A stretch of 64,000 nt of DNA from Gemmatimonadota bacterium (lineage in GTDB: Bacteria; Gemmatimonadota; Gemmatimonadetes; Palauibacterales; KS3-K002): the NCBI GenBank assembly GCA_020350785.1, contig CP070722.1, forward strand, positions 1,668,611 to 1,732,610, given 5' to 3'. The notes beneath the pieces were generated by a model. It ran no database searches. It was not told where the DNA came from and saw only the letters and a list, made by a program, of their open reading frames with translations. Below are positions 11,501 through 52,731 of this stretch, piece by piece. Within the stretch, counting starts at the first letter, position 1; each line of letters starts with the position of its first letter. A program made the position numbers and the translations under genes.

Positions 11501-11525
11501 ACGGAAATCACCGCGCCAGAAAGAG

Positions 11526-11559: not shown

Positions 11560-11624
11560 GGCCCGGGACCCCGGGGGTCAGGCGCGCCGACCGTGGCCCT
11601 TTGACCGTGCGGAGGAAGTCCTTG

Positions 11625-11680: not shown

Positions 11681-11752
11681 ATGCAGGCTGCGCCCATCGT
11701 GTGGCCCGGAATCCCGCCGACTGGGCTTACAGTGACTTGCCGGGGAGGGAAC

Positions 11753-12184: not shown

Positions 12185-12370
12185 GGCTTCGGGCTCGACG
12201 GAGATGGGGAGTGGTGTGTTGGGCGGGGCGGTGGCGTCAAAGCCATCGACCGTCGACCCCGTCTGAAGGGACGGTGGGCAGGTGGCAGGGGGAGGGCTGT
12301 GTGGGGTCTAGGGGTAGGGCAAGGCCGTCTGTCCACCGTCTCTCTATAGGTCGCGACGAAGGAATGAGAT

Positions 12371-18502: not shown

Positions 18503-18503
18503 A

Positions 18504-20989: not shown

Positions 20990-22134
20990 GAGACCTTGCA
21001 GCCACCCTGACGGTCGAAGCCTACGTGCCAGCCGCGGGCAGTGCCCGGCGTGATGCCGGCATGGTGTTGGCCATTACGGTGTTCTTCGTGTTGGTCGGTT
21101 TGCTCACGGTTTACAGCGCCAGTTCCTTCCTGGCTCAGAGCAAGGGTCTACCGGACCACTACTTTCTGCGTCAACAGGCGAGCAGAGCTTTAGTCGGCCT
21201 GGTCGTACTATACGTTCTTGCCCGGGTGGATTACCGAATCTACCGCCGACTCGCATGGCCGCTACTCGGTTTGACAGCCGCGGCGCTTCTGGTGCTCGTC
21301 CTTCCGGGGACGGAGGCGATCGCGCCGTCTCGCAACGGCGCGCGCAGGTGGCTCGAGATCGGCGTGACGGTGCAGCCGTCGGAGGCAGCCAAGCTGGTGA
21401 TGATCATCTGGGCGGCGGCGCTGGCCGCGAAGAAAGGCGAGCGGGTCAGGAGTCTGCGTTGGGGACTTGCGGCGTTCGGTGTCGTTTACATGGCGATCGC
21501 CTTCCTCATCATGCTCGAGCCCGATCTTTCGTCGGCGGCATTGATCGGCCTGCTGTGCGCCATAGTGTTGTTCACGGCAGGTGCGAGGATCGGTCATTTC
21601 ATTCTCTTGGGGCTGCTGGCAGTGCCGATCCTCTGGGAGTATGTACAGGCGGCCAGCTATCGAATGAATCGGCTCGTCACCTTCTTGAACCCGGGGTCCG
21701 ACCCGACCGGTGTCGGCCACCAGTTGAAGCAGTCGTTGATCGCGGTCGGATCGGGCGGCCTGTTCGGTGTCGGCTATGGAGAGAGCGCACAGAAGTACGA
21801 CTTCTTGCCTGAGCTGCACAACGACTTCGCCTTCGCGATCATCGCCGAGGAGTGGGGACTGATCGGCGTCGTGACCGTCGTTTTGGCGCTGGCGGCGTTC
21901 GGGTTTATGGGGCTTCGGATTGCACGGCGAGCGCCGGATGCTTTCGGGTTCCTGCTGGCCGTCGGACTTACGGCTCAGATCGTGATCGGTGCGCTGATTC
22001 ATATGGGAGTGACGTTAGGTCTGCTGCCCACGACCGGGATCACGTTCCCTTTCATCAGCTTTGGAGGCTCGAGCCTGGTCGTGTCTCTAGCGGCGGTCGG
22101 GATACTGCTGAACATCGGAAGCTGGCGAGCGTGA
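20986..22134 (+). CDS. ftsW: Peptidoglycan glycosyltransferase FtsW (SEDS family)
   Basis: 10-TM SEDS pattern (LLTVYSASS..., PSEAAKL, HNDFAFAIIAEEWG, PFISFGGSS). Overlaps murD stop. Confidence 0.9.
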   Translation: MRDLAATLTVEAYVPAAGSARRDAGMVLAITVFFVLVGLLTVYSASSFLAQSKGLPDHYFLRQQASRALVGLVVLYVLARVDYRIYRRLAWPLLGLTAAALLVLVLPGTEAIAPSRNGARRWLEIGVTVQPSEAAKLVMIIWAAALAAKKGERVRSLRWGLAAFGVVYMAIAFLIMLEPDLSSAALIGLLCAIVLFTAGARIGHFILLGLLAVPILWEYVQAASYRMNRLVTFLNPGSDPTGVGHQLKQSLIAVGSGGLFGVGYGESAQKYDFLPELHNDFAFAIIAEEWGLIGVVTVVLALAAFGFMGLRIARRAPDAFGFLLAVGLTAQIVIGALIHMGVTLGLLPTTGITFPFISFGGSSLVVSLAAVGILLNIGSWRA

Positions 22135-22138
22135 CTAC

Positions 22139-23278
22139 GTGGGATACCGAGCGATCGTTGCCGGCGGCGGAACAGGCGGGCACCTCTACCCGGCCCTCAA
22201 TTTGGCCGCTGCCCTGGAGCGCCGAAGTATGGGTTCGCTGGAGGTCCTGCTGGTCGGAGCCGAACGCGGGATCGAGTCGCGAGTGTTGCCTGACAAAGGG
22301 GTGGATCACCGTCTGCTACCGTTGCAGCCGATTTATCGGAGTCGGCCTTGGCGCAACTGGCGAACCCTGGTCTCGGCGTTTGCGGTTGCCCGCGATATCA
22401 AGACTCTGTTCGCGAGCTTCGCTCCAAACCTGGTCGTGGGCACGGGTGGCTATGTGGCGGGTCCAGTCGTTGCTTGGGCTGCGGCGCGGAATCTTCCCAC
22501 GGCGATCCAGGAGCAGAACAGTTATCCCGGAGTCACCACGCGTTGGTTGGCACCGTACGTCGATCAGATTCACCTGGGCTACGCGGAGGCCATGAGATAT
22601 CTACTCCCCGGCCGGACCACCGAAGTCCGGGCGCACGGCGTTCCCATTGGCTGGCCTGAACAACGGCCGGAACCGCAAGCCGTGCGCCGCCAGTTCGCCC
22701 TGAGGGCGGGGCGATTAGTGCTGGCAGCGGGTGGAAGCCAGGGTTCGGCTTCGCTGAACGCTGCACTGTTGGCTGGTCTCGAAGCCGCAAGCCGCGGCGA
22801 TCTGCCAGGCTTGCCGCCCGAGACTCAGCTGCTCTGGTCGACCGGGCCGGCTCACCACGATGCGGTGAGCCGCCGCCTAGACGAACTGAAGGTGGGTCCC
22901 GAGGTGACGGCACTATCCTATATCGACGGGATGGAGAAGGTGCTCTCGCTGGCAACGCTGGCGGTTTCGCGAGCCGGTGCCGTTACGCTGGCTGAGTACT
23001 GTGCGTGGGGTGTCCCCTCCGTGCTGGTGCCGCTGCCGCACGCTACCGCACAGCACCAACTGCACAACGCGCGGGCTCTGGCCGCGGCGGGAGCGGCGCT
23101 GGTCGTAGAGGAGGGCGAGCTGGGAGAGTCTCCGGAGCTGCTATGGAGGGAGCTAATCGGGCTGCTGAGTTCGGAGGCCAGGCTCGAACGAATGGGCGCG
23201 GCGGCGCGGAGGAGGGGCAATCCAGATGCAGCCGATCGCATAGCCGATGACCTTTGGCGTCTGTTGGAGGATCGTTGA
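22139..23278 (+). CDS. murG: UDP-GlcNAc--MurNAc-pentapeptide GlcNAc transferase MurG
   Basis: IVAGGGTGGHLYPAL N-terminal G-loop motif and GT28 C-terminal domain. Likely GTG start. Confidence 0.9.
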   Translation: MGYRAIVAGGGTGGHLYPALNLAAALERRSMGSLEVLLVGAERGIESRVLPDKGVDHRLLPLQPIYRSRPWRNWRTLVSAFAVARDIKTLFASFAPNLVVGTGGYVAGPVVAWAAARNLPTAIQEQNSYPGVTTRWLAPYVDQIHLGYAEAMRYLLPGRTTEVRAHGVPIGWPEQRPEPQAVRRQFALRAGRLVLAAGGSQGSASLNAALLAGLEAASRGDLPGLPPETQLLWSTGPAHHDAVSRRLDELKVGPEVTALSYIDGMEKVLSLATLAVSRAGAVTLAEYCAWGVPSVLVPLPHATAQHQLHNARALAAAGAALVVEEGELGESPELLWRELIGLLSSEARLERMGAAARRRGNPDAADRIADDLWRLLEDR

Positions 23279-24693
23279 GGCCTAATACGGAACTGGCACG
23301 GTTGGTAGAACGGGGGGCCCCGATCCACCTGTTGGGAATCGGCGGCGCCGGCATGGCGAGCCTGGCGCTGCTACTTCAGGCGCGGGGAGCACGCGTAAGC
23401 GGTTGTGACCAGGAGCTCAGCGACATGACGGCGGACCTGGAGCGCCGGGGGATCTCGGTCGAGCGCGGTCACAGCCCTGAGCATGCGGCGGCTGTGGAGG
23501 CGCTCGTCTATACGGCCGCTATTCCGGAAGATCATCCCGAGTTGCGGGCGGCCCGGGAGCGCGGATTGCCGGCGATCAAACGCAGCAGTGCCCTCGGCGA
23601 GCTGGCCAACGCCGGCAGGCTGGTAGCCGTCGCCGGCACGCATGGGAAAACCACGACGACGGCTCTGACGGCGATGGCGCTCGAAGCGGCGGGTGTGGAC
23701 CCGGTAGCCTTGGTGGGCGGCCGGGTGCCCGCCTGGGGTGGCAACGCCCGCATAGGCGGCGGCCAGACTTTCGTGGTCGAGGCAGACGAGTACGATCGCT
23801 CTTTCCTCGCGCTCTGGCCGCTAATCGCGGTCGTGACCTCGGTAGAGCCGGAGCACCTCGACACCTATGGAAGCACAGAAGAGATGGAGGCGGCGTTCGA
23901 CAACTTCGTGAGCCGGGTACCGGATGAAGGCCGTGTGGTCGTCTGCACAGATGATCCGGGCGCTCGTCGCAGGTTGCGGCTGGTCGGACAAAGAGGTCTC
24001 TCCTACGGATTGCGGAGTGACGCAGATCTGCGGGCGGAGCATATCGACCATGCGGTGGACCGCACACATTTCTCCGCCAGCTGGCGAGGAGAGCCGATCG
24101 GGTCATTCGAGCTCCTGCTGCGAGGAGAGCACAACGTTAGAAACGCGCTGGCCTCACTCGGCGTCTTGCTGGCCATGGATATCGAGCCGGGGGTGGCGGC
24201 GGGGGCGCTGGCGGGCTTCGGCGGAGTCGAACGACGATTCCAGAAGTTGGGGGAGGCGGGTGGGATCACGGTGATCGACGACTACGCACACCACCCGACG
24301 GAGGTAGCGGCGACGCTCGATACAGCGAAGCTGGTCTTCAAGGATCAGCGTTTGGTGGCCGCGTTTCAACCGCACCTCTACAGCCGGACCGCCGCTTTCG
24401 CCGTTGAATTCGGCAAGGCGTTGGCACGGGCTGACGTGGTGTTCGTCACGGATGTCTATCGGGCCCGCGAGGCTCCGATTCCGGGTGTCACCGGTGAACT
24501 GGTCGCAACGGCCGCGCGCGCGCAGCGGGGCGGAGATGGTGTGCGCTACCGGGAGAACCTGGCGGCGCTTAGAGCGGCCCTGAGAGAGGAGCTGCGGGCT
24601 GGCGACGTGCTGATCACGCTTGGGGCGGGCGACATCGGACAAATGGCGCACGTCTTGTTCGACGAGCTTAGGCGGAGTCATGTGGATGCGTGA
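23254..24693 (+). CDS. murC: UDP-N-acetylmuramate--L-alanine ligase MurC
   Basis: IHLLGIGGAGMASLALLL, AVAGTHGKTTTTAL and the Mur ligase C-terminal domain. Confidence 0.9.
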   Translation: MASVGGSLRPNTELARLVERGAPIHLLGIGGAGMASLALLLQARGARVSGCDQELSDMTADLERRGISVERGHSPEHAAAVEALVYTAAIPEDHPELRAARERGLPAIKRSSALGELANAGRLVAVAGTHGKTTTTALTAMALEAAGVDPVALVGGRVPAWGGNARIGGGQTFVVEADEYDRSFLALWPLIAVVTSVEPEHLDTYGSTEEMEAAFDNFVSRVPDEGRVVVCTDDPGARRRLRLVGQRGLSYGLRSDADLRAEHIDHAVDRTHFSASWRGEPIGSFELLLRGEHNVRNALASLGVLLAMDIEPGVAAGALAGFGGVERRFQKLGEAGGITVIDDYAHHPTEVAATLDTAKLVFKDQRLVAAFQPHLYSRTAAFAVEFGKALARADVVFVTDVYRAREAPIPGVTGELVATAARAQRGGDGVRYRENLAALRAALREELRAGDVLITLGAGDIGQMAHVLFDELRRSHVDA

Positions 24694-25573
24694 TGTACCG
24701 CTGGCGGGCCTGACGCGCTGGAAGATCGGCGGGCCGGCGCCGGCCTTTGCGAGGGCGCGAACGGAGCTGGAGCTGCGTGATCTCTTAGCCGAGCTCGGGG
24801 AGGGACCGGTTCTGGTAATGGGGAGCGGAGCGAACTTGCTGATCGCCGACGAAGGCTCGGGTTGCCCCGTCTTGGTTCTTGACGGTGAATTCAAGACGTT
24901 CGATCTGGCGGAGCAGAGCATCCGTTGTGGCGCCGCGGCGTTGATTTCGTCCGTGGTTCAGGCCGCACGGCGCGCTGGACGTGGGGGCCTCTGGATTCTT
25001 GAGGCAGTGCCAGGGACGATGGGTGGCGCGCTGCGCATGAACGCGGGCACTCCCGAGGAGGGGATCTGGGAACGAGTTCTCTGGGCCGAGATCATGCGGC
25101 GCGACGGCCGGTTGGATCGGGTCCAGCGCGAAGATGTCGAGCCGCGCTACCGGGGGATCGACCTTGATCCCTCGGCGATCTTCCTGCGAACCGAGATCTC
25201 GGCGCCGCCAGGCGACGCTGGACGTGTCGAGGAGGAGCACGCGCGGCGTCGGGAAGCGAAGCTCAAGGCGCAGGTTTACGACCAACCCACGTGCGGGTCG
25301 ACATGGAAGAACCCGGAAGCGCCCTCTCCTTCGGCCTGGCAACTGGTGGACCGTGTCGGGATGCGAGGGGCCAGGCGCGGTGGCGCACAGGTATCGCCGA
25401 AGCACGCCAACTTCATCGTGAACCTCGGGGGCGCGCGCGCCGCTGACGTGGTCGAGCTGATGATTGAGACGCGCCGTCGTGTGCTGAGCGAGACGGGCAT
25501 CGCGCTGGAGCCCGAGATTCAGTTCTGGGGATTCTCCGAGGATGTTCTCAGGCAGCTGGGGGTGGCGGCGTGA
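24680..25573 (+). CDS. murB: UDP-N-acetylenolpyruvoylglucosamine reductase MurB
   Basis: FAD-binding PCMH pattern (TRWKIGGPA...GSGANLL...GTMGGALRMNAG) and C-terminal CGSTWKNP. The ATG 24680 overlaps the murC end. Confidence 0.85.
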   Translation: MWMRDVPLAGLTRWKIGGPAPAFARARTELELRDLLAELGEGPVLVMGSGANLLIADEGSGCPVLVLDGEFKTFDLAEQSIRCGAAALISSVVQAARRAGRGGLWILEAVPGTMGGALRMNAGTPEEGIWERVLWAEIMRRDGRLDRVQREDVEPRYRGIDLDPSAIFLRTEISAPPGDAGRVEEEHARRREAKLKAQVYDQPTCGSTWKNPEAPSPSAWQLVDRVGMRGARRGGAQVSPKHANFIVNLGGARAADVVELMIETRRRVLSETGIALEPEIQFWGFSEDVLRQLGVAA

Positions 25574-26322
25574 AGGGACGGAGCGCGCTTCCCTGGGTCG
25601 CTTTCCTGACGGGAATGGTGATTGTCGCCGGAGGAATCGCGGGGACGCACTGGGGTCGCAGGCTGCTGACCCGCGTCGATTACTTCGACGTTCGCCGAGT
25701 TGAAGTCGTGGGCACGCGCTGGGTCGCGCCGGACGCCCTACTGGAACTGGCGGCCATCCGCGGGGGTCGTTCGGTCTGGGAGGATTATACGGATGTTGAA
25801 ATGCGGCTGGTCGAGCATCCGCTGATCGATGAGGCACAAGTGAGGCGTGCGGGCTGGCGTTCGTTGCGCATTGTCGTACGTGAGACTGAACCGGTGGCTT
25901 TCGTTGGAGTGCCCGAGCTCCGCGCGGTGCACGGGGACGGGACCGTGATTCCGCTGGATCTCGCCGGCACCGAGCTCGATTTGCCCCTAATCACTGAAGA
26001 GGCTTCACTGGCTGAGGATTCGAGTCGCGTGGTGGCGGGGCCGGCGCTAGAAGCACTGGAGATTTTCGTCAGCTTGAACGAACTGGATCCAGGACTGGGC
26101 GGGGTAGTATCCGATTTCGGTTTAGCGCAAGGGGCGGGGTTGTGGGTGAATCTGGTGGCCTCGCAGCCCGCCCGGCGTTTGGCGCTACCGGATCGGGTTG
26201 ACGAGAGGCTTGTACGACGTATCCGGGCGACGCTTGACGATCTGCGGAGGCGCGGCATAGCGGCCGACCTGATCGAGGCGCGCTTTGCGGGAATCATCGT
26301 GGTGCGGAGAGAACGGCTATGA
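25570..26322 (+). CDS. ftsQ: Cell division protein FtsQ (POTRA)
   Basis: N-terminal TM then POTRA-like VRRVEVVGTRWVAPDALLE. Sits in the canonical position between murB and ftsA; the start and stop overlap both neighbours. Confidence 0.8.
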   Translation: MKGRSALPWVAFLTGMVIVAGGIAGTHWGRRLLTRVDYFDVRRVEVVGTRWVAPDALLELAAIRGGRSVWEDYTDVEMRLVEHPLIDEAQVRRAGWRSLRIVVRETEPVAFVGVPELRAVHGDGTVIPLDLAGTELDLPLITEEASLAEDSSRVVAGPALEALEIFVSLNELDPGLGGVVSDFGLAQGAGLWVNLVASQPARRLALPDRVDERLVRRIRATLDDLRRRGIAADLIEARFAGIIVVRRERL

Positions 26323-27557
26323 TTGCGACACCCTACCTGATTGGGGCGCTAGACATCGGATCGACGAAGACGTGCGCCGTGCTTGGCGAGCTGCTGCTCA
26401 GCGGTGACGGCCCAGCCCAGGTCAAGATACTGGGTGTGGGGCAGGTCAAGCCGAATGGTGTTCGCCGCGATGCGGTGAGCAACCTGGAGGAGACGACCGA
26501 GGAAATTCGCCAGGCGCTCAAGCAGGCCGAGCTGATGGCAGGTGTTCAGCCCAGGGGCCTATATGTGGGGATCTCCGCTGACTACGTTCAGACGAGCACG
26601 TCGAATGGTGTCGTGGCGATCGGAGCGGATGAGATCGATGAAGATGATCTCGATCGAGTACACGAAGTTGCCCGCGCCGTTGTCGTGCCGCCCGACCGCG
26701 AGCTGCTGCATGTAATCCCACAGGATTACTCCGTCGATCATCGGGGTGGTATCCAGTACCCTGTCGGGATGTTGGGCACCAGGTTGGAGGCAGAAGTTTT
26801 CATGGTACTCGGTTCTGGGGCGGCCGCGCGCAACTTGCGCAAGGCCGTATCACGGGCTGGATACGAGGTCGTTCAGCTGGTGCTCAATCCGCTGGCAGCG
26901 GGGTTGGCCGTCTTGACGCCGGAGGAGCGCGAAGTCGGGACCGCGGTTGTCACGATTGGGGGCAGGATGACCGAGATCGCGATCTTTCACGAGGGCAAGA
27001 TCAGGCACGTGACGGTCGTACCCTGCGGGGGAGTGAGTTTCACAAACGACTTGGTGAAGGGTCTGGGCATCCCATATGCCGAGGCGGAGAAGGTCAAGGA
27101 GCGGCATGGCGTAGCGACCACGCGGCTTGCCGATTCGGAACAGACGATCGATGTGCCGGGCCCGGCACCGGGCGCGCGAAAGCACATGCCCAAGGAACTG
27201 GTAGCGCACATCATCGAACAGCGGATGGATGAGGTCCTGTCGCTGGTGCTTCAGGAGATCGAGCGTGCTGGTTTCTCCAATCGCCTGGGTGGCGGCGTGG
27301 TGCTGACGGGTGGGGGGGCCAGCCTGGAGGGGACACTGGAGGTAGCGCACTCGGTGTTCACGATGCCGGTGCGGTGTGGCGCACCGGGCGATGGTCTCAG
27401 CGGGTTGGCCGACTCAGTCCGTCGGCCGAAGTTCGCGACGGCTGCGGGGCTACTGCTGTTCGGCGCAGGTCGAATACGAGAGGGTCTTGGAAACGGGCGG
27501 GGTTCGACGCTACGAGCGCTCGCCAGAGTCGGGGGCTGGTTGAGGGAGTTCTTTTAA
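26319..27557 (+). CDS. ftsA: Cell division protein FtsA
   Basis: Actin-fold motifs LIGALDIGSTKTCAVLG, VLTGGGASLEG. Confidence 0.9.
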   Translation: MIATPYLIGALDIGSTKTCAVLGELLLSGDGPAQVKILGVGQVKPNGVRRDAVSNLEETTEEIRQALKQAELMAGVQPRGLYVGISADYVQTSTSNGVVAIGADEIDEDDLDRVHEVARAVVVPPDRELLHVIPQDYSVDHRGGIQYPVGMLGTRLEAEVFMVLGSGAAARNLRKAVSRAGYEVVQLVLNPLAAGLAVLTPEEREVGTAVVTIGGRMTEIAIFHEGKIRHVTVVPCGGVSFTNDLVKGLGIPYAEAEKVKERHGVATTRLADSEQTIDVPGPAPGARKHMPKELVAHIIEQRMDEVLSLVLQEIERAGFSNRLGGGVVLTGGGASLEGTLEVAHSVFTMPVRCGAPGDGLSGLADSVRRPKFATAAGLLLFGAGRIREGLGNGRGSTLRALARVGGWLREFF

Positions 27558-27566
27558 GGGGAGGGG

Positions 27567-28697
27567 ATGACCATGATTCGTTTCGAGATGGCTGACTCGA
27601 GTGCACGACATGCCAAGATGCGAGTCATCGGAATCGGGGGCGGTGGTAACAACGCTGTCGATCGGATGATCCAGGAGGATCTGCCGGGCGTCGACTTTGT
27701 GGCCGTGAACACGGACAGCCAGGCACTGAGCAATTGCCGGGCGTCGATTAAGATTCAGATCGGCAAGAAGCTGACCCGCGGCTTGGGCGCGGGAGCTCGG
27801 CCCGAGATTGGACGGCAGGCGATAGAAGAAAACAAGCAGGAGGTCGTTGAAGTCCTGCGCGGCGCTGACATGGTATTTGTTACGGCGGGTCTAGGCGGCG
27901 GTACCGGCACGGGTGCGGCCCCGATCGTGGGGCAGTTGGCCCGTGAGCTCGGCGCTCTGAGCATCGCGATAGTGACGAAGCCGTTCGAGTTCGAGGGTAA
28001 GAAGCGCATGCACCAGGCAGAGATCGGCTTGGCCGAGATTCGCAGGGCCGTTGACACGGTGATAGTCGTACCCAACCAGAGGCTCTTGTCCGTCGTCGGG
28101 AAAGGGACGAGTTTCCGTGAGGCCCTCAAGAAGGCCGACGAGGTGTTGTTGCAGGCCACTAGGGGCATCTCCGATCTGATCAGCGTGACCGGGGATGTGA
28201 ATGTCGATTTCGCCGACGTCCGCACAGTGATGGCGAATCGGGGGCCGGCACTGATGGGCACGGGCTGTGCGAAAGGAGAGAACCGCGCGCAGGAAGCGGC
28301 GCAAGAAGCAATCTCGTCACCGCTGCTCGACGATATCTCGATTAGCGGCGCCAAGGCTGTGCTGATCAACATCACGGGTGGTCCCGATCTGACGATCGAT
28401 GAGGTCACCACCATCAGCACGGTCATCGGAGAGGCGGCTGGCGATGAGGCCGAGATCATCTTCGGTACGGTGCACGATGCAACGCTGGAGAACGAGTTGC
28501 GCGTGACGGTGATCGCTACCGGCTTCGAGCCCGCCGATGTGAGTGCCTCGGCGGCCGTGCTCCGGCCGGCGTTTGGGGCCAAGAAGTCTAGCCGTCAAGT
28601 GAGCGTGCCGGTGGGCGACCGGAGCGTGATACCGTTGGAATTCACGGATCCGCGCGAGCTCGAAATCCCGACGTTCATTCGACGTCAGATGGACTGA
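27567..28697 (+). CDS. ftsZ: Cell division GTPase FtsZ
   Basis: GIGGGGNNAV, tubulin signature GLGGGTGTGAAP, NTDxQAL. GGGGAGGGG SD is 3 nt upstream. Confidence 0.95.
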   Translation: MTMIRFEMADSSARHAKMRVIGIGGGGNNAVDRMIQEDLPGVDFVAVNTDSQALSNCRASIKIQIGKKLTRGLGAGARPEIGRQAIEENKQEVVEVLRGADMVFVTAGLGGGTGTGAAPIVGQLARELGALSIAIVTKPFEFEGKKRMHQAEIGLAEIRRAVDTVIVVPNQRLLSVVGKGTSFREALKKADEVLLQATRGISDLISVTGDVNVDFADVRTVMANRGPALMGTGCAKGENRAQEAAQEAISSPLLDDISISGAKAVLINITGGPDLTIDEVTTISTVIGEAAGDEAEIIFGTVHDATLENELRVTVIATGFEPADVSASAAVLRPAFGAKKSSRQVSVPVGDRSVIPLEFTDPRELEIPTFIRRQMD

Positions 28698-32867: not shown

Positions 32868-34949
32868 ATGAGTGGCACATCGATACTCGACCGACCGGTT
32901 CAGTACCTGAAGGGTGTGGGTCCGCGCCGCGCTGAAGCGTTAGGCAAGCTGGGCATAACGCGGGCGCGTGACCTGCTCCGGCACGCTCCCCACCGTTATC
33001 TCGATGCTACGACGGTGACGCCGATTGCCCGGTTGGCGCCGGGGATGGAGGGCACGGCGATCGGTGACGTCGTGTCAAAAGGCGTCATTCCGACGCGCAA
33101 GGGCCTGCGCCTCTTTCAGGCGGTCATTCGGGACTCCTCGGGGCTGATCGAGTGTTCGTGGCCGGGCCAGCCCTTCCTCGACCGAACGATTCGCAAGGGC
33201 GACACTCTCCTAGTCGCCGGCCCGGTGCGCTTTTTCCACGGCAGGCAAATCCAGCCGCGTGAGTTCACGGTCCTGGCGCGGGCCGGTGACTCGGCCGATG
33301 AGGAGGGAACCGTGTTCCCGGTCTATCCGGCGACGGCGAATCTGACCCATCGGCAGATCCGCCGAATAGTGCAGGAGAATCTGGACGGGCTACTCGCAGC
33401 CGCCGAACAGGAGGAGTCCGTTGTCAGTGAGGGCTTACGACGTGAACATGGATTAGCCACTCTGAGAGAGGCGCTGGAGTGGCTGCACAGACCGCCTACG
33501 TTGGCGCATGCGGAGGAAGCGCGTCGGCGCCTGGCCTTCGAAGAGCTCTTTGTCCTTCAGGTGCTCTACGCGCGTGCCCGCTACGAGAACCGTGAGAGTC
33601 GCCGGGGTGTGGCGTTCGAGCGCAAGAACTCCCTCGTCGGGCCGTTCTCGAAGGCGCTTCCTTTTCAACTCACTGCTGCCCAGAAGAAGGTATTGGCGGA
33701 AATCTCGAAGGACATGTCGAAGCCTCAACCGATGAACCGCCTGCTGCAAGGAGACGTTGGCAGCGGCAAGACCGTGGTGGCTGTGTTCGCGATGCTGCGA
33801 GCCATCGAGAACGGCTACCAGGCCGCTTTGATGGCGCCTACCGAACTTCTGGCCGAGCAACACTTCGCGACGATCCAGCAACTGCTGACCGAGCTTCCCG
33901 TTCGTACGGGCTTGCTGCGTGGTGGGCTCAAAACGTCTGAGCGGCGCGCTGTATTGGAGGAGGTAGCCAGCGGCGAAGCACAACTAATAATAGGGACACA
34001 CGCTCTGATTCAGGAGAGCGTCGAGTTTCAGCGCCTCGGGCTCGCCGTCATCGATGAGCAGCATCGCTTCGGCGTTCGACAGCGGATGAAGCTGCGGCGC
34101 GCTGGTGCGGATCCAGATGTTCTCGTCATGTCGGCGACACCGATCCCGCGATCCCTGGCCCTGACATTCTACGGAGACCTCGATATCTCGGTCCTCGACG
34201 AGCTGCCGCCGGGCCGCCGTCCCGTGCGGACGGTGCTTCGCCGAGCGAGCGCAAGGTCGCGAGTCTTCGAGTTCCTGCGGGCCGAGGTGGCATCGGGCCG
34301 TCAGGCATATGTGGTCTATCCAGTCATCGAGGAATCAGAGACGCTGGATGTGCGCTCGGCGACGGAGGCTTTTGAGCATCTCTCGAAAGAGGTGCTAGCG
34401 GATCTCAGGGTCGGGCTGATCCATGGTCGTCTACCGAGCGATCAGAAAGACGATATCATGCGGCTGTTCGTGTGCGGGGAGATCGATGCGCTGGTTTCCA
34501 CGACGGTGATCGAGGTTGGCATCGATGTTCCGAATGCAAGCGTCATGATCGTGGAGGGGGCGGAGCGGTTCGGCCTCTCACAGCTACACCAGCTACGGGG
34601 CCGGGTCGGGAGGGGCGGGGCTCAGAGCTACTGCATCGTTCTCTACGTCGGCGCGGAGCCGCCGGAGCGACTGGCGATCTTCGCCTCCACCAACGACGGG
34701 TTCGAAATCGCCCGCGCCGACTTACGACTGCGAGGATACGGCGAATTCTTCGGCGCAAAGCAACACGGTCTTCCAGAGTTCACCTTCGCCGATCTCTCCC
34801 GCGATGAGCCACTGCTCCATGCGGCGCGCGATGCTGCAGCGCGCATCATTGGAACCGATCCGCTGTTGGAGCGCCGAGAGCAGCGGGCCTTGAACCAGGC
34901 GTTGCGCAGCGAGTATCGGGAGCGGCTACAGCTTTACGATGTAGGTTGA
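32868..34949 (+). CDS. recG: ATP-dependent DNA helicase RecG
   Basis: N-terminal wedge domain. Helicase motifs LLQGDVGSGKT, DEQHRFG, SATPIPRS, QLHQLRGRVGRG and a RecG-type C-terminus. Confidence 0.9.
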   Translation: MSGTSILDRPVQYLKGVGPRRAEALGKLGITRARDLLRHAPHRYLDATTVTPIARLAPGMEGTAIGDVVSKGVIPTRKGLRLFQAVIRDSSGLIECSWPGQPFLDRTIRKGDTLLVAGPVRFFHGRQIQPREFTVLARAGDSADEEGTVFPVYPATANLTHRQIRRIVQENLDGLLAAAEQEESVVSEGLRREHGLATLREALEWLHRPPTLAHAEEARRRLAFEELFVLQVLYARARYENRESRRGVAFERKNSLVGPFSKALPFQLTAAQKKVLAEISKDMSKPQPMNRLLQGDVGSGKTVVAVFAMLRAIENGYQAALMAPTELLAEQHFATIQQLLTELPVRTGLLRGGLKTSERRAVLEEVASGEAQLIIGTHALIQESVEFQRLGLAVIDEQHRFGVRQRMKLRRAGADPDVLVMSATPIPRSLALTFYGDLDISVLDELPPGRRPVRTVLRRASARSRVFEFLRAEVASGRQAYVVYPVIEESETLDVRSATEAFEHLSKEVLADLRVGLIHGRLPSDQKDDIMRLFVCGEIDALVSTTVIEVGIDVPNASVMIVEGAERFGLSQLHQLRGRVGRGGAQSYCIVLYVGAEPPERLAIFASTNDGFEIARADLRLRGYGEFFGAKQHGLPEFTFADLSRDEPLLHAARDAAARIIGTDPLLERREQRALNQALRSEYRERLQLYDVG

Positions 34950-43134: not shown

Positions 43135-44409
43135 GTGAACAAGACAGAGACGACCCCTAGGCGGGTCTATTTCCAAACATTCGGTTGCCGCGCCAACCAG
43201 TACGACAGCGAGCGGATGCGCCAGCTGCTGGAGCTGCGCGGTTGCGAGACGGTCAGCGATCCCGCACTGGCCGACGCGATCATCGTCAACAGTTGCACCG
43301 TCACCCGCAATGCCGATGCGGAGCTGCGCCGCTACGTGCGCGCGGCCAGCCGCCGGGCCGGTATCGGTACCCCCGTGGTCGTGGCGGGCTGCGCGGCAGC
43401 GGTAGCTACTGAAGCCATCGGTCGACTGGATGGTGTCAGCACGGTGGTCCCTGGGCAGGACCCCGAGGCGGTGGCCTCCTCTCTGGGCTTGCATGGCCGT
43501 GCCGGTGAGGTCGCGGGGACGGTCCTGGATCGCGCTGCTCGCGGTAGCCGGGCCTGGCTGAAGATCCAAGACGGCTGCGATTTGCGTTGCTCGTACTGTG
43601 TCATACGGGTGGCTCGAGGCCCTAACCGCTCACGCGCGCCGTTCGAAATAGCGCGCGAAGCAGGGAACCTGGCGCGGCACCACCCGGAGATCTCACTTAC
43701 CGGCATCCACATCGGCCTGTACGGAAAGGATCTGCGCCCGCGAGTCACACTGGCCGCCCTCTTGGAAACGCTGCTCGAGGAAGTCCCGGACGTGCGGTTT
43801 CGAATCGGCTCTCTCGAGTGCAATCAGCTGGACGATTCCATCGTCCGCCTGATGGAGAACTCGAGTGGCCGGCTGGCTCCTCACCTCCACGTACCGTTGC
43901 AGAGCGGCAGTGACCGCGTCCTACGGCTGATGCGCCGTGCCTATCGCGCCGAGCGCTACCGCGAGCGGGTGGAGCGACTCTGTGCAAGGGTTTGGCCCCT
44001 GGGGTTGGGTAGCGACGTGATGGTGGGTTTCCCCGGCGAGACGGATGATGACCACCGCCGCACGGTGGAGTTGATCGAGGCGCTGCCGTTCACTTACTTG
44101 CACGTCTTCCCTTACTCGGATCGGCCGAACACGGACGCGGTCGGGCTACCCAATCCAGTCCCGGCACAGGTCAAGGCTGAGCGTTCCCGTGAGATTCGGG
44201 CGCTGGCGGCCCGTAAGTCTTCTGCATACCGACGGCGACGCGTGGGGACTCCTGCCTGGATTGTGCTGGAAGGCGGCGATGCAGCCATCGCGGTGACGGG
44301 TGACTACCTGAAGATGCCTGCCTCGGATAGCTTAGTAGCGATGGGTCCGCGTCTGCAGCTGGCGCGAGTGGTCGCCGACGGAAACGGCGGTCTGCGCGCC
44401 GAAGCTTGA
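43135..44409 (+). CDS. Radical-SAM methylthiotransferase of the MiaB/RimO/MtaB family (MtaB-like)
   Basis: N-terminal MTTase motif FQTFGCRANQYDSE, radical-SAM CDLRCSYC, and a TRAM-like C-terminus. FGCR(A/V)N resembles MtaB more than MiaB (TYGCQMN) or RimO (LGCPKN). Confidence 0.8.
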   Translation: MNKTETTPRRVYFQTFGCRANQYDSERMRQLLELRGCETVSDPALADAIIVNSCTVTRNADAELRRYVRAASRRAGIGTPVVVAGCAAAVATEAIGRLDGVSTVVPGQDPEAVASSLGLHGRAGEVAGTVLDRAARGSRAWLKIQDGCDLRCSYCVIRVARGPNRSRAPFEIAREAGNLARHHPEISLTGIHIGLYGKDLRPRVTLAALLETLLEEVPDVRFRIGSLECNQLDDSIVRLMENSSGRLAPHLHVPLQSGSDRVLRLMRRAYRAERYRERVERLCARVWPLGLGSDVMVGFPGETDDDHRRTVELIEALPFTYLHVFPYSDRPNTDAVGLPNPVPAQVKAERSREIRALAARKSSAYRRRRVGTPAWIVLEGGDAAIAVTGDYLKMPASDSLVAMGPRLQLARVVADGNGGLRAEA

Positions 44410-44426
44410 ATCCGAGAACATTGGGT

Positions 44427-45743
44427 ATGGCCAAGACTTACTGGGTCGAGACGTACGGTTGCCAGATGAATGTCAGCGACAGCGAGCTTATGGAGGGTGT
44501 GCTGGCGGCGGATGGCTATTCCCAGGTTTCCACACCCGAGGAAGCGGACGTGATCCTGATTAATACGTGCGCTATCCGTGAGCATGCCGAGCGACGGGTG
44601 CTGGGCCGGGTAGCGGAGCTCAATCGGGTGAAGAAGCGCCGACCGGAGACACTGATCGGCGTGTGCGGTTGCATGGCCCAGCGGCTGGGTACTCAGCTCA
44701 TCCAGCAGGCGCAACATGTGGACATGGTGATAGGTCCGGATGCGTACCGGTCGCTTCCGCAGTTGATCGACCAGGCGAGCCGCAGCGCAGCGGCCGTCGT
44801 CGACGTGGACCTGAATCCGGCAGAGAACTACGAGGGCCTTGAGTTACGGCGGAAGTCGCGGGTCTCGGCCTGGATACCAATCCAGCGTGGCTGCAACTAC
44901 CGTTGCACCTTCTGCATCGTGCCGCACACCCGAGGGAACGAGAAGAACCGCGATCCGCGGACGATTCTTCGGGAGATCGGGCGGCTCGCTCAGGAGGAGG
45001 GGATCACGGAATTCATCCTGCTGGGCCAGACCGTGAACTCGTATCGATACGGGGACTGCGATTTCCCGGGCCTTCTTCAGGCCGTCGCACGCCTGCCCGG
45101 CGTGCGTCGCGTGCGTTACACCTCGCCACACCCCAACGATCTGACGCGCGAGCTGGTCGAGGTTATGGCAAACGAGCCGGCCATCTGTCCGCAAATGCAT
45201 CTGCCGGTCCAGTCGGGATCCGACGAGGTGCTCAAGCGCATGGCGCGCCGCTACACCAGGGAGGGGTACCTGGCCAAGGTGGCCATGCTGCGCGAACTGA
45301 TTCCGAATATCGCACTCAGCACGGACATCATCGTAGGCTTTCCCGGAGAGGCCGATGCCGATTTCGAACAGACGCTCGATCTCGTGAGTACGGTGCGTTA
45401 CGACGATGCGTTCACGTTCCGCTACTCGCCGCGCGAGGGTACGCCCTCCACCCGAATGAGGGACGAGTTGTTGGTGCCCGATCATGTGGCGCAGGACAGA
45501 TTGGAACGCCTCATCACTCTTGTGAGGAAGATCGCGGCGGAAAAGAACCTCTCGGAGGTGGGTCGAACGACGGAGGTCCTGATTGAGAAGAGGGCGCGGC
45601 GCGGCATGCTCCTTCAGGGCCGGACGGACACCAATAAGGTCGTCCTGATTCCTGGGCCGGAGGAGTGGATCGGGAGATACGTGACGGCCGTGCTCACGGG
45701 CACCAGCGGCGCCACCTTTACCGGCTTTCCAGTTGGATCATGA
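44427..45743 (+). CDS. miaB: tRNA-2-methylthio-N6-dimethylallyladenosine synthase MiaB
   Basis: MAKTYWVETYGCQMNVSDSE (the MiaB-type TYGCQMN motif), radical-SAM CNYRCTFC and a TRAM domain. The ORF starts at 44406; I prefer ATG 44427. Confidence 0.85.
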   Translation: MAKTYWVETYGCQMNVSDSELMEGVLAADGYSQVSTPEEADVILINTCAIREHAERRVLGRVAELNRVKKRRPETLIGVCGCMAQRLGTQLIQQAQHVDMVIGPDAYRSLPQLIDQASRSAAAVVDVDLNPAENYEGLELRRKSRVSAWIPIQRGCNYRCTFCIVPHTRGNEKNRDPRTILREIGRLAQEEGITEFILLGQTVNSYRYGDCDFPGLLQAVARLPGVRRVRYTSPHPNDLTRELVEVMANEPAICPQMHLPVQSGSDEVLKRMARRYTREGYLAKVAMLRELIPNIALSTDIIVGFPGEADADFEQTLDLVSTVRYDDAFTFRYSPREGTPSTRMRDELLVPDHVAQDRLERLITLVRKIAAEKNLSEVGRTTEVLIEKRARRGMLLQGRTDTNKVVLIPGPEEWIGRYVTAVLTGTSGATFTGFPVGS

Positions 45744-47491: not shown

Positions 47492-49834
47492 TTGACCAAG
47501 CGCCGACCGCCCAGACCGCGACCGCTCGCCCTTGCCGCTCTGGCTCTGGCAGGCGGGATCACGACCGGGTTGCAGGGAAGGAGCGAGCTTCTGGCTCCGG
47601 CTGCGGCCACGGCAGTCGGGCTCTGCCTGGCAGCGGTGCTTCTCGATCGGCGCGACTGGCTCCATGTCGCAGCGCTCTCGTGCGTCGCGGTCGGTGGACT
47701 GAGCATTGGCGCGGGGGCACAGGCGCGAAGCCGCACGGACTGCCGTGATACCTGGGAAGCCGGTGACCGGGTCCAGGTGATCGGGGTCGCGGTCAGCTTC
47801 CTGCCGGGTGGCGAGCAGGGGAGTGTGCGGTTGCAGCCATGGCCGGCGGCCTCGGGTGAGAGCTGCAGGTGGGACGGAAACCTGCGTATCTGGGCCGAGG
47901 GTCCCGTTCGGCCGGGAAGCAGCTACGAGGTGAGGGGGGTTTGGCAGCTCGCTCGCACTCCGGGCTCGGTCAAGCGCCGGCCCGAGCGACGCGGCTGGGT
48001 ATCAGCCTTCGACTTGACGGAGGTCGCGCCGGCCGAGCTTCGCAAGCACCCATTCCTGACGGTTCGGGGCACGCTGGCAGAGAAGTTATGGCGCGCCTAC
48101 CCGCGCCGCTGGGCGCCGCTGGCTGAGGCATTGGTGCTGGGTCAGCGCGAGACGCTAAGCCCGGAGATCCAGCAGCGCATCGCACGTGCGGGTCTGGCTC
48201 ACCTCCTCGCTATCTCCGGTCTCCATGTCGGCATGTTGGCGGCGGCCGCATTCGCTCTGGCGCGAATGGCCAGGGTGCCGGTGCACGCCAGTCGAGTCAT
48301 GACCCTCTTGGTGACGACGCTCTACGTCCTGCTGATCGGCGCTCCGGAGTCGGCGGTGCGCGCGGCATTGATCGTGGCACTGTGGGTGCTGGCGCGCCTG
48401 GCGGGGCGCGCCTCGTCGCCCTTCGATGCCTTGGGGCTGGCCGCGTTGACCCTGCTACTCATAAGGCCTTGGAGCGTTCTGGAACCCGGATTCCTGCTCT
48501 CTTTCGGGGGAGCGGCGGCTGTGAGTTACGCCTATCGCGAGGTGGTCGGTCAGGGGTGGCTTCGGGAGCGAGCGGCGCCGATCCGAGGCATCGCCGTGAG
48601 TCTGCTGACGAGCCTTGCCACCGTGTTGCTCGTCGCTCCTATTACGGCGACCTACTTCGGCCGCGTTACGCCGGCGGCGATAGTCGGTAACCTGTTTGCC
48701 GTTCCGCTCTTGGCCCTGGCGATGCCGGCTCTCTTCGCATCGGCCGTTCTTTCGCCGTGGCCGTCTCTGGCGTCGTGGCCTGCGGGAGCGGCCATCGTCC
48801 TTCTGCAAGGCATCGAGCTGCTGGCCGGCTTGCTGAGCCAGGTCGGCTGGGGCTCCTTCGAGGTGGCACGCCCCGGCGTCCTACCTGCGCTCACATATCT
48901 GGTGTTATTGGTGATGGGGGCCCACGCATTTCACGGTGCCTGGCAGCGACGCAGGTTCATTCTGGTTCTGGGGACCGCGATCGCGGTCTCAATGATGTGG
49001 CCTCCCCTTCAGCGACTGTCCGCTCCGGACGGACTGACGATCTACGTGTTCGACGTGGGACAGGGTGACGCGATCGCGATTGCGACGCCAAAGCGCCACT
49101 GGCTGTTAGTGGACGCCGGCACGAAGTTCCGCGACTTCGATGCCGGAGCCCGGCGCGTCCTGCCGGCCCTAAGGGAGCAAGGCGCCGGGCGACTCGTCGC
49201 CTGGCTGGCCAGCCACCCCGATCTGGACCATGTGGGCGGGGCACCGTCCGTCTTCGACGCCTTGACGGTCGACCGGGTCATCGGATCCGGCAAGCTGACC
49301 GGTCAGGCCGGGCAGCTTGCAGTGCTGCGCTGGCTGGCCGACCGAGAGGTTCCCTGGCTTTGGGCTGACGAAGGGACGCGCCTGTCGGTGGACGAGGTGG
49401 ACCTGGTTTTCCTACACCCCGAGAAGAACTCGCTGGCCTCGGCGCTGGAGAGCGCGCCCAACGAATTCAGTTTGGTATTCCTACTCGAGTTCGGTGAATT
49501 TCGCATGCTATTCACCGGTGATGTGCCCGGGGCGGTCGAGGATCGCTTGAGCCGCGAGCGTCCCGAGCTGCTGAAGGCGCAGGTGCTCAAGGTCTCTCAT
49601 CACGGGAGCTCCAGCTCCACGTCGCGTCTGTTCCTATCGACGGTCCAGCCCGAGCTTGCGGTCATCTCCGTGGGCCGCGGTAATCGCTACGGTCATCCTT
49701 CGCCGCAAGTGCTCGCCCGCCTGCTGGCACGCAACATCGCGGTCAGGCGCACCGATCGCGACGGTACTCTGGTGATCGAGGCCAAACGCGATGGTAAATG
49801 GCGTGTGCGCTCGGCCGCCGAGGGCTACTGGTGA
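47492..49834 (+). CDS. comEC: DNA internalisation-related competence protein ComEC/Rec2
   Basis: Multi-TM competence domain plus a C-terminal metallo-beta-lactamase domain (VFDVGQGDAIAI...HPDLDHVGG...KVSHHGS). TTG start; an earlier start is possible. Confidence 0.85.
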   Translation: MTKRRPPRPRPLALAALALAGGITTGLQGRSELLAPAAATAVGLCLAAVLLDRRDWLHVAALSCVAVGGLSIGAGAQARSRTDCRDTWEAGDRVQVIGVAVSFLPGGEQGSVRLQPWPAASGESCRWDGNLRIWAEGPVRPGSSYEVRGVWQLARTPGSVKRRPERRGWVSAFDLTEVAPAELRKHPFLTVRGTLAEKLWRAYPRRWAPLAEALVLGQRETLSPEIQQRIARAGLAHLLAISGLHVGMLAAAAFALARMARVPVHASRVMTLLVTTLYVLLIGAPESAVRAALIVALWVLARLAGRASSPFDALGLAALTLLLIRPWSVLEPGFLLSFGGAAAVSYAYREVVGQGWLRERAAPIRGIAVSLLTSLATVLLVAPITATYFGRVTPAAIVGNLFAVPLLALAMPALFASAVLSPWPSLASWPAGAAIVLLQGIELLAGLLSQVGWGSFEVARPGVLPALTYLVLLVMGAHAFHGAWQRRRFILVLGTAIAVSMMWPPLQRLSAPDGLTIYVFDVGQGDAIAIATPKRHWLLVDAGTKFRDFDAGARRVLPALREQGAGRLVAWLASHPDLDHVGGAPSVFDALTVDRVIGSGKLTGQAGQLAVLRWLADREVPWLWADEGTRLSVDEVDLVFLHPEKNSLASALESAPNEFSLVFLLEFGEFRMLFTGDVPGAVEDRLSRERPELLKAQVLKVSHHGSSSSTSRLFLSTVQPELAVISVGRGNRYGHPSPQVLARLLARNIAVRRTDRDGTLVIEAKRDGKWRVRSAAEGYW

Positions 49835-49914: not shown

Positions 49915-50988
49915 ATGACGACGCTCCTACCCACACGCTACGCTGAGAGATCGAACTCCACCTTCTTCGAGGTGGCTGACCTGCTCGTTACCATCGACTA
50001 CCGGGTCGTCAGGCGTAAGAGCCTTCTGCTGATGCCGGGCCCGCCGTCGGCGCGCCTCCTGGTGACGATTGCGGAGACCCAGAGGCTTGCCCACGAGTAT
50101 CGGATGCCGAAAGCCCGACGCGTGGGCGGCGAGATCAGTCGAATCGAGCGAGGTTTGTACGCCTTCCTGGATGAAGTGGTCCGTAGCGCGGTGCAGATGA
50201 AAGCGCTGGAGAGCGCCGAGCGAGCGGTTGAGGAGTTGGAGTCAGACCACCTGTATGGAGCGGCCGAGCTGGCCCCAGCCGAGCGGGCATCTGGTCTGAG
50301 CGATGACCGGTTCGAGCAGGCCCCTTTCGTCGGGGAGCTGGTCGATAAGCTCGTAACTGCGTTTCGGCTTCTTACAAATGTCACCTCCTTGACTCGTGAA
50401 GGGCTCGAGGCCTACCAGGGCGATCGCAGTGCGGCGCTGGAAAAGGTGGTCGAATCAGCCTCACTGACATCAGCTCTCCGCGTTCAAAGCCTCGTTCAGG
50501 CGGTCGAAGCATTTCTTCATCACGAGGTCGACGCCACGACGGACGTCAAAGTGCTACGTGAAAGGACACTCGATTATCTGGCCGAGGTGAGGCGTAGAAG
50601 CGACGTCGCGGCGGTGATCAGTGATGAGCAGGCTCACGTGATCGTTAATGACTTCGTTCCGGCGTACTTGAAGCTCAGAAAGCGATATGATGCGGCAGCG
50701 GAGGCGCCGCACAATCTGGTGGAACACGCGCTGGGCAGCTTTTTCGGCGGAGGCATCGCAGGATATCTCGTGATCTCTCTGTTCGGGGAGGCCGTCATCA
50801 GGAACCTGACGGGCATGTATGTTGACCTCCCCGGCTGGTATCTCGGGGCGGCGGTCGCCTTTGCCTGGCCGTACCTGAAGGGGGCCGTCGGGCTTCTCAC
50901 CCGCGACAAGAAGCTCGACCGGGAGCGCGAGGCGCTCCTTAAGAGGATCAACGCCCGGCTGAGGTTGATGTGGCCGGAGGAGAACTGA
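49915..50988 (+). CDS. Hypothetical protein with C-terminal TM pair
   Basis: 357 aa, largely helical, with hydrophobic C-terminal segments (FFGGGIAGYLVISLFG; LGAAVAFAWPYL). No family recognised. Confidence 0.4.
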   Translation: MTTLLPTRYAERSNSTFFEVADLLVTIDYRVVRRKSLLLMPGPPSARLLVTIAETQRLAHEYRMPKARRVGGEISRIERGLYAFLDEVVRSAVQMKALESAERAVEELESDHLYGAAELAPAERASGLSDDRFEQAPFVGELVDKLVTAFRLLTNVTSLTREGLEAYQGDRSAALEKVVESASLTSALRVQSLVQAVEAFLHHEVDATTDVKVLRERTLDYLAEVRRRSDVAAVISDEQAHVIVNDFVPAYLKLRKRYDAAAEAPHNLVEHALGSFFGGGIAGYLVISLFGEAVIRNLTGMYVDLPGWYLGAAVAFAWPYLKGAVGLLTRDKKLDREREALLKRINARLRLMWPEEN

Positions 50989-51030: not shown

Positions 51031-51633
51031 TTGGAAATCATGGCCTGGATAGAAGAGGTCGTACCGGAAAAGGCGACGGGCTTGCTCAAGAGGCTATATG
51101 GCGACGCCATCAAGCGGGCGGGCAGGGTCTGGGGGATCGTGAGGATCATGAGCTTGAATCCACCGGCCATGCGGGACAGCATGCGGTTCTACACCACGGT
51201 CATGCATGGCGATTCACCGCTCAGTCGCAGACAGCGCGAGTTTCTGGCGACAGTAGTCTCCGTCGAGCTCGATTGCCGCTATTGAACTCAGGCGCATGCG
51301 CACGACCTCCGGGAAGAGGTCGCAGCCGAGTTCAGCGATCGCGCCCAGGCGGACGCCTTCGTGCTCGCTGTGGTCCGGGATTGGCGCAGCGCGCCTATCG
51401 ATGCTGCGGACCGAGCGTTGGGTGCGTTTGCGGTCAAGCTTACCAGCCGCAGCCATGAGTGCGGGGCTGACGACATCGAGACGTTGAGGCGGAACGGGTT
51501 CAGCGATCGAGCCATCCACGATGCGGTTCAGGTTATCGCCTACTTCAACTACATCACCCGGATCGCTGACGCGCTTGGGGTCGAGCCGGAGAGCTTCATA
51601 CAGGATTGGGGGGGAGCCATGTCTGAGCGTTGA
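51031..51633 (+). CDS. CMD/AhpD-family (carboxymuconolactone decarboxylase-like) protein with in-frame TGA at 51283-51285. This is either a selenocysteine-containing candidate or a nonsense-interrupted pseudogene.
   Basis: ORFs 51031-51285 and 51361-51633 are in the same frame, separated only by one TGA. The joined translation reads ...LSRRQREFLATVVSVELDCRY[TGA]TQAHAHDLREE...DAVQVIAYFNYITRIADALGVE, which matches the AhpD/CMD core. The TGA falls exactly on the second Cys of the catalytic C-x-x-C-x-x-x-H motif (C-R-Y-U-T-Q-A-H). Confidence 0.6.
51303..51322 (+). promoter_or_regulatory. Candidate bacterial SECIS-like hairpin downstream of the in-frame TGA
   Basis: CGACCTC-cgggaa-GAGGTCG is a perfect 7-bp stem with a 6-nt loop containing GG. 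It starts 18 nt 3' of the TGA, which is about where bacterial SECIS elements sit. Confidence 0.3.
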
Positions 51634-51663: not shown

Positions 51664-52731
51664 CTAGGGTCCCTCGCTGTCCACGTATACGATCCCCAAC
51701 GTGAAGGCGCCGGCCTCAGCCGTCCAAACCGGCTCCATTGTCTCGAGATCGATCGCCACCACTCCGCCGGAACTGCCTACGTCTCCCTCGTAAGTCACAT
51801 AGGCCAGCTTGCCGCCTTTCCCGAGGGCTACGCCGTGGGGATGAGGGCGGCCGATGTCGATACGGGCCCGCTCTTGTAGCTCGGGGAGCCGTAGAATCGA
51901 CACCGAAGCGTCATTACGATTTGCGGTCACCAGCGTTCGGCCGTTGTCGGCGATCGCGATCTGCGCGGGCCCGGGCCCGACCGCCGCGACACCCAGCGGT
52001 TCACCCTGAATGCTGAAGGCGCGAATCTCGCCGGCGGCGTGAAGCGCGACGTAGAGCGTCGCTCCGTCGGGCGACCAGACGAGATTGAGTGGCTTGAAGC
52101 GCGGCAGGCCGGCGGGCCCCGGCAGCGTGTCGACAAAAAAGCGATCGACTTGACCTAGCGAAGCCACATCGAGCACCACGACCTCATCACTCATGCTGCA
52201 AGCGACTGCAACGAGCTCTCCCGATGGTTGGACCTGAGCGTCGTGCGGGGCAGGGCAGAGGGTGGGGCGTGCCACGATCGACAGATCACTGAGGTTGACG
52301 ACCGCCATCGCGCTCGGCCGGCCCTGGCCGCTGCGGTAATAATCGGGGATGAACCCACGGCTGCCGTCCGGCGTCACACCGATACGGGCTGCGCCCTTGG
52401 TGCCAAGTCCGACCCGACCGACCAGGCGGTCTCCAGGCCGCTCGAATTTCCAGAGTGTCGGTTCGCCGTGCGACAAAGTGGCGTACCAGTGGCGGCCGTC
52501 GGGGGCCACGACGATCCCGTGGGGCCCATCGATTTCATCTCGGCGACGCTCGAGGGAGAAGCTGCCGGTGATTCGCCCGTCTCGGGGGTCGAGCTGCAGA
52601 ACCTCGTCCGTTGCACCTGACGTAACGTAGAGGCGCGCCTCGAACGATTCTCCGCCTCCCTGGTTAGACGAGCCGCAGGCGTGCAGCGTGACTGCTATCA
52701 GCAAGCCTGTGTATCTAAAGCGTGGACGCAC
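51664..52731 (-). CDS. YVTN-family beta-propeller lipoprotein
   Basis: Signal/lipobox LHAC. Repeated ~40-aa units (G.ITGSF...GPHGIVVAPDGRHWYATL; ARIGVTPDGSRGFI; LNLVWSPDGATLYVAL; IAIADNGRTLVTANR; PHGVALGKGGKLAYVT) are typical YVTN propeller blades. Confidence 0.6.
   Translation of the reverse strand: MRPRFRYTGLLIAVTLHACGSSNQGGGESFEARLYVTSGATDEVLQLDPRDGRITGSFSLERRRDEIDGPHGIVVAPDGRHWYATLSHGEPTLWKFERPGDRLVGRVGLGTKGAARIGVTPDGSRGFIPDYYRSGQGRPSAMAVVNLSDLSIVARPTLCPAPHDAQVQPSGELVAVACSMSDEVVVLDVASLGQVDRFFVDTLPGPAGLPRFKPLNLVWSPDGATLYVALHAAGEIRAFSIQGEPLGVAAVGPGPAQIAIADNGRTLVTANRNDASVSILRLPELQERARIDIGRPHPHGVALGKGGKLAYVTYEGDVGSSGGVVAIDLETMEPVWTAEAGAFTLGIVYVDSEGP

Follow-up and report, generated by a model that had tools for sequence, protein, structure and literature searches.

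A TGA codon at the second cysteine position of an AhpD-like gene in a Gemmatimonadota bacterium is predicted to encode selenocysteine

A 64-kb stretch of Gemmatimonadota DNA (referred to below as the window) contains two open reading frames, 51031-51285 and 51361-51633, which had been called as separate genes. The question raised by this locus is whether they are parts of one gene in which an internal TGA is read as selenocysteine (Sec). An earlier note, made from the sequence alone, had proposed that both ORFs lie in one frame and that a TGA is the only interruption between them. Translation of 51031-51633 (+) confirmed this: the frame is common to the two ORFs and there is a single internal stop, TGA 51283-51285, in the context D-C-R-Y-TGA-T-Q-A-H. 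The note had the gene extending from 51031 to 51633. The frame and the end, where TGA 51631-51633 (+) is the terminal stop, are correct, but the start is not. Homologues begin with M-[P/A]-[W/Y/F]-I, which fits ATG 51040 (MAWIEE...) and led us to reject TTG 51031. On the basis of homology and profile match the predicted selenoprotein CDS occupies 51040-51633 (+) and comprises 197 codons including Sec82.

For profile searches the internal TGA was replaced by Cys in the translated product. The product scored 119.1 bits with TIGR01926 (NCBIfam, "peroxidase-related enzyme") against a curated cutoff of 81.8 and is a member of this family. Its residues 8-184 align with profile positions 7-176 of 178, that is, end to end and as a single domain. 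Pfam CMD (PF02627) matched the same Cys-substituted product with E = 2e-12. We also considered NF041238 (AhpD_rel_CFYUT, 'hypothetical protein 1' of the Sargasso Sea), with which the product shares a C-x-Y-U-T motif and an AhpD-like domain. Membership was rejected: the score, 69.8 bits, falls far below the cutoff of 175, and only positions 151-338 of 357 were aligned. Unlike the 197-aa protein, that profile has about 150 additional N-terminal positions, which find no match here. The best identity observed was 70%, with the nearest genome copy, in the Gemmatimonadota genome L004; the closest database proteins reach 63-64%.

Both the C-x-x-C(U)-x-x-x-H motif and the Glu/Tyr(His)/His proton relay are present at canonical spacing. 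The relay described for AhpD consists of Glu118/Cys130/His132/Cys133/His137 in the Mycobacterium tuberculosis enzyme and of Glu36/Cys48/Tyr50/Cys51/His55 in Pseudomonas aeruginosa PA0269 (PMC3141380). The window gene has Glu67/Cys79/Tyr81/Sec82/His86 with a spacing identical to both, and its middle Tyr is that of PA0269. Glu67 (GAG, 51238-51240, +) is the proton-relay Glu and the counterpart of Glu118 and Glu36, 12 residues before the first Cys as in PMC3141380. Cys79 (TGC, 51274-51276, +) is the first residue of C-x-x-U and the presumed resolving thiol; the in-frame TGA at 51283-51285 (+), predicted to be the Sec82 codon, takes the second Cys position; and His86 (CAT, 51295-51297, +) closes the C-x-x-U-x-x-x-H motif as the counterpart of M. 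tuberculosis His137, again at the spacing of PMC3141380. All five of these residues form invariant columns in alignment A1.

The statement that the TGA sits exactly at the second Cys of C-x-x-C-x-x-x-H was verified by comparison with known structures. The PDB proteins 6k40, 2pfx and 2oyo were matched over almost their full length (E = 1e-21 to 6e-19), and the TGA aligned with the second Cys of CxxC in 6k40 (CVYCAVSH) and 2pfx (CFYCLVAH). Extended to 3c1l and 2prr, the comparison placed a CxYC motif over C-R-Y-TGA-T-Q-A-H in all five proteins (E = 1e-21 to 4e-14). The product is expected to share the all-helical CMD/AhpD core domain of the Cys-type AhpD structures. It differs from Cys-type AhpD in that the second Cys is replaced by a predicted Sec, in that no ahpC neighbor was found, and in its low identity to the PDB proteins (best E = 1e-21).

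If the TGA were a private feature of this genome, relatives should reveal it. DNA of relatives was collected with one genome per species; 593 of 600 pattern matches encode relatives, and the best 80 of these were kept. TGA was found at exactly the Sec82 codon in all 80 genomes, where it is the sole stop within about 190 codons, and Cys79 was present at every one of these 80 loci. The genomes carrying TGA among these best 80 bear at least seven phylum labels, with assignments to Anaerolineae, Caldilineaceae, other Chloroflexota, Gemmatimonadota (including Longimicrobiales), Actinomycetota, Planctomycetota, Latescibacterota, Thermoanaerobaculia and Calditrichaceae. Three more distant homologues (L082, L083 and L085) have TGC (Cys) at this codon, and distant full-length database proteins have Cys in the same column (CFYCTEAH, CHYCTQAH and others). 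A Sec/Cys pair is therefore seen at a functional site, with TGA in the window and in the 80 relatives and Cys in L082, L083, L085 and the PDB relatives; this is the pairing with Cys-containing orthologues that the earlier note had suggested looking for.

Some labels and some codons in this collection deserve separate mention. Over the 60 nt that follow the TGA, a MAG labeled Gammaproteobacteria (L028) and a Gemmatimonadetes MAG (L023) are identical except at one position. The AhpD-like gene is also present in two MAGs labeled 'Klebsiella sp.' (L064 and L066), where the contigs are 1.7 and 18 kb long. The contigs of L028, L064 and L066 are probably mis-binned or mislabeled. Two other loci, each on a single contig, have neither TGA nor Cys: L084:3001-3582 (Logan SRR8466080) has AGA (Arg) and L087:367-963 (JGI 3300081968) has GGA (Gly) at the Sec codon, both with the downstream hairpin described below intact. 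AGA and GGA are each one first-base change away from TGA. These are either recent Sec-loss variants without the catalytic residue or read errors.

A codon that is translated should be followed by sequence under the same constraint as that preceding it. In comparison with L004, the closest relative, pN/pS was 0.187/0.637 for codons 1-81 and 0.203/0.667 for those that follow the TGA; purifying selection is equal on both halves of the gene. Downstream of the TGA all family-invariant residues are retained, with no frameshift and no second stop in 115 codons.

The earlier note had further described a perfect 7-bp hairpin 18 nt downstream of the TGA, in the position of a bacterial SECIS element, and this hairpin was found as described. 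The putative element lies at 51303-51322 (+) inside the CDS, with 51303-51309 pairing with 51316-51322 around an apical loop at 51310-51315 (CGGGAA). Its sequence is CGACCUC-CGGGAA-GAGGUCG; the perfect 7-bp stem starts 17-18 nt after the TGA, and the hairpin takes in the last part of the His88 codon and the six codons that encode D-L-R-E-E-V. The 63 nt from the TGA onward fold at z = -2.9 relative to dinucleotide shuffles. A bacterial SECIS is described as having a small apical loop that contains a G, shortly after the UGA (PMC1088965), and the hairpin fits this description as a stable stem-loop soon after the UGA with a small G-containing loop. No Rfam model matches it, and a permissive scan of 51200-51450 gave two weak, unrelated matches.

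Conservation of the hairpin was analyzed in an alignment (A2) of the 60 nt from the TGA onward in 81 sequences. The hairpin is kept in 81/81, with compensatory changes from C-G to U-A. In stem columns 21-27 with 34-40 of A2, standard pairs fill 98.2% of cells; shifting the 3' side by 1-3 columns lowers this to 21-45%. At pair 24-37, which shows no mismatch, 66 sequences have C-G, 11 have U-A and 4 have U-G, and pair 25-36 has switched to U-A once in the 81 sequences. The observed covariation score was reached in 0 of 500 shuffles, a control that ignores the relatedness of the sequences. RNAalifold predicted the same hairpin from the 81 sequences and nothing else. The loop consensus is C-G-[G/U]-G-N-N, small and G-containing.

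Conservation of the stem is in part derived from the protein, since the stem is made of codons of the conserved peptide HDLR[AE]EV. Because the stem consists of the D-L-R-x-E-V codons, we compared codon choice in the hairpin with the codons used for these amino acids in the remainder of the 81 genes. Leu in the hairpin is encoded by CTC in 79/80 cases (background 29%) and Glu by GAG in 80/81 (background 58%). Arg is CGG or CGT in all 81 sequences; CGC, the commonest Arg codon with a background of 44%, occurs in 0/81. Val is never GTG, against a background of 40%, and the last base of the loop is never G in the 81 sequences. Replacement of Val by Ile (GUC to AUC) occurs only alongside the synonymous change of GAC to GAU on the opposite strand of the stem. 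Judged from these patterns, the hairpin is under selection at the RNA level, and its codons are constrained well beyond the need of the protein.

The Cys forms differ in what they have kept of this structure. The hairpin is absent in L085, degraded in L082 (5/7 pairs) and retained in L083. The last of these, L083:305-814 (ENA ERZ23492295), has TGC and still carries the hairpin GACCUCCGUGUCGAGGUC, which suggests a 'fossil' SECIS left by a recent Sec-to-Cys conversion. Around the hairpin of the window gene the UGA can itself pair in a 7-bp lower stem, 51283-51289 with 51327-51333 (UGAACUC/GAGUUCA), the whole having an MFE of -27.3 kcal/mol. We rejected the lower stem as part of the element, as RNAalifold on the 81 sequences gave it no support, and the pairing of the UGA is probably incidental. 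The hairpin resembles the SECIS of the Escherichia coli fdhF type in lying within the CDS soon after the UGA and in having a small loop with a conserved G and G/U. It differs from that type in that the stem starts 17-18 nt past the UGA and in having neither a conserved bulged U nor a conserved lower stem. In fdhF the stem starts about 11 nt after the UGA.

Three other explanations of the TGA have to be weighed against decoding as Sec. The gene could be a pseudogene, in which a common Cys-type AhpD-like gene lost its catalytic Cys codon (TGC or TGT) to TGA by a chance nonsense mutation. This would take a single-base change from TGC, and gene callers do report two ORFs. However, recurrence of the same TGA together with the hairpin in 80/80 relatives, the best 80 of 593 and from many phyla, is far beyond chance, and the presence of TGA in these relatives, the Cys forms and the alignment with structures exclude a private nonsense mutation. 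A recent nonsense event of the kind that the earlier note had proposed to judge from relatives is thus contradicted by them. The co-conserved hairpin with its marks of RNA-level selection and the purifying selection downstream also speak against a pseudogene, which we regard as highly improbable. The TGA could instead be read as Trp or Gly throughout the organism (code 4 or 25), and several full-length database homologues among P0001-P0011 do show W in the TGA column. The one of these that was checked, P0001, has TGA, read through by the gene call of its source. A G in the Sec column of P0006 was considered as a code-25 artefact and this was rejected, the codon being a real GGA. In the window, moreover, TGA is the stop of 27 of the 34 confident ORFs, including those of MiaB and ComEC, whose HMM matches reach the ends of their profiles. 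TGA is consequently an ordinary stop here, which excludes a code 4 or 25 reading. The G+C content of the window (63.6%) is also unlike that of known code-4/25 lineages. We consider reassignment scarcely credible.

The third explanation is that the Sec machinery has recently been lost from the genome, so that the TGA terminates and the gene is a young, intact-looking relic. In its favor, no tRNA-Sec was found in the 64-kb window with ARAGORN or Rfam, tRNA-Val (9557-9630) being the only tRNA there, and tblastn detected no match to selA, selB or selD in the window. The probes were E. coli SelA, SelB and SelD, and the targets were the window and 1.3 Mb of relatives' flanks. The loci with AGA (L084) and GGA (L087) and an intact hairpin likewise indicate that Sec loss at the site may occur in nature. 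The window, however, represents about 1-2% of a genome, and absence of sel genes there says almost nothing. Against a relic, neither the TGA nor the perfect hairpin nor the loop consensus has been damaged, the 115 downstream codons have kept the family-invariant residues free of frameshift or second stop, and pN/pS relative to L004 is equal on both sides of the TGA. Loss of the machinery is in our judgment unlikely.

Decoding of the TGA as Sec is the reading we prefer. We estimate at roughly 0.9 the probability that the AhpD-like gene 51040-51633 is functional and encodes Sec at UGA 51283-51285, its product being a predicted thiol/selenol oxidoreductase; most of the remaining doubt attaches to the sel genes of this genome. 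The candidate put forward in the earlier note has accordingly gained weight from the TGA of the best 80 relatives, from selection past the TGA, and from covariation and synonymous constraint in the hairpin. The sequence data support this assignment on all the comparative grounds by which bacterial selenoprotein genes are judged. The candidate appears to be alone in the window: strict and relaxed scans for TGA-interrupted genes, with redox motifs, gave no credible second case besides 51283, and the other candidates were rejected as low-complexity off-frame translations.

The E. coli fdhF paradigm is SelB-dependent recoding of UGA by means of a hairpin downstream of it. By analogy, when the ribosome reaches UGA 51283-51285, SelB carrying GTP and Sec-tRNA(Sec) would bind the hairpin, and Sec82 would be inserted in competition with release factor 2. 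No hairpin of this kind follows the terminal TGA (51631-51633) at the same distance, and this codon would act as a stop. Sec82 would then stand at the second-Cys position within the conserved relay Glu67/Cys79/Tyr81/Sec82/His86. Mutagenesis of M. tuberculosis AhpD reportedly identified the second position as the nucleophile. In the same way the Sec82 selenolate might attack an oxidized partner or substrate, which could be a peroxiredoxin sulfenate or disulfide or a hydroperoxide. Cys79 would resolve the intermediate as a selenenylsulfide, and an upstream reductant would recycle the enzyme.

No ahpC or other peroxiredoxin gene adjoins the AhpD-like gene in the window, and a promoter and terminator scan near the gene found nothing relevant. 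Its neighbors are ComEC (47492-49834, +), an upstream ORF of 357 aa with no NCBIfam match (49915-50988, +), a beta-propeller protein with weak matches only (51664-52731, -) and a choice-of-anchor-B protein. The syntenic block shared with L004 comprises ComEC, the AhpD-like gene, the choice-of-anchor-B gene and two more genes, at 67-68% amino-acid identity; taken with the G+C content of 63.6%, it assigns the window to a Gemmatimonadota relative. In L004 the AhpD-like gene has ComEC and the choice-of-anchor-B gene as its immediate neighbors; 49915-50988 and 51664-52731 are extra in the window and have no L004 counterpart. Otherwise the window carries common chromosomal core genes: the dcw cluster for cell division and cell wall (FtsI-like PBP, MurE, MurF, FtsW, MurC, FtsA and FtsZ; 13617-28697, +), RecG (32868-34949, +) and MiaB (44406-45743, +). 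Exact-protein look-ups placed the C-terminal ORF of the AhpD-like gene on one 1.2-kb Logan contig (L081, SRR35494129) and gave no record for the upstream ORF or for FtsZ.

The flanks of the relatives, about 20 kb for each of the 80, were searched for decoding genes as well. ARAGORN found no tRNA-Sec in them, and tblastn revealed a single sel gene. This was a selB in the Planctomycetaceae MAG JBGCDN010000011.1 (L054), located at 10758-12734, 176 nt downstream of the AhpD-like Sec gene at 10001-10582; it scored 327.6 bits with TIGR00475 (cutoff 242). This adjacency lends indirect support to the reading as Sec. A literature search on the Sec trait in Gemmatimonadota returned nothing usable. A more far-reaching proposition, which we consider rather unlikely, is that the best-80 orthologues, from at least seven phyla, form an obligately Sec clade whose SECIS stem lies in H-D-L-R-[A/E]-E-[V/I], with RNA pairing dictating the choice of amino acid. 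In that case the gene may also travel horizontally, now and then along with its decoding factor, as the selB of L054 hints. If this were true, Sec would be functionally irreplaceable and the substrate of the enzyme would be other than AhpC.

Sec-containing AhpD-like proteins are a recognized family, as the earlier note had stated. CxxU AhpD-like proteins (COG2128) were reported in 2005 as a new selenoprotein family of the Sargasso Sea with 27 sequences (PMC1088965), and the family was the fourth most abundant in GOS data with 299 sequences (PMC2398784). "AhpD-like protein, TIGR01926, CxxU" is an explicit entry in a 2026 review (PMC13188914), and BSepDB has a page on the AhpD-like selenoprotein family. 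The window gene shares with this family (COG2128/TIGR01926; Zhang & Gladyshev) the HMM family, the motif, the Sec/Cys pattern and a SECIS-like hairpin. There is no difference in kind; the window copy has at most 70% identity to L004. By these features the gene is a further member of the selenoprotein family catalogued since 2005.

In the database set P0001-P0120, more than 80 entries are C-terminal fragments of about 110 aa that start with M/V-QAHAHDL, one codon past the TGA, and several full-length entries, on short metagenome contigs, have W in the Sec column (in P0001, the one checked, the codon is TGA). The AhpD-like family looks to be widely mis-annotated in public protein sets. For the window, the two ORF fragments are to be merged into one selenoprotein gene. 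The locus gives no special handle on the biochemical function of the family; the finding is useful for annotation and not surprising, and the gene predicts a Sec-decoding trait in its genome.
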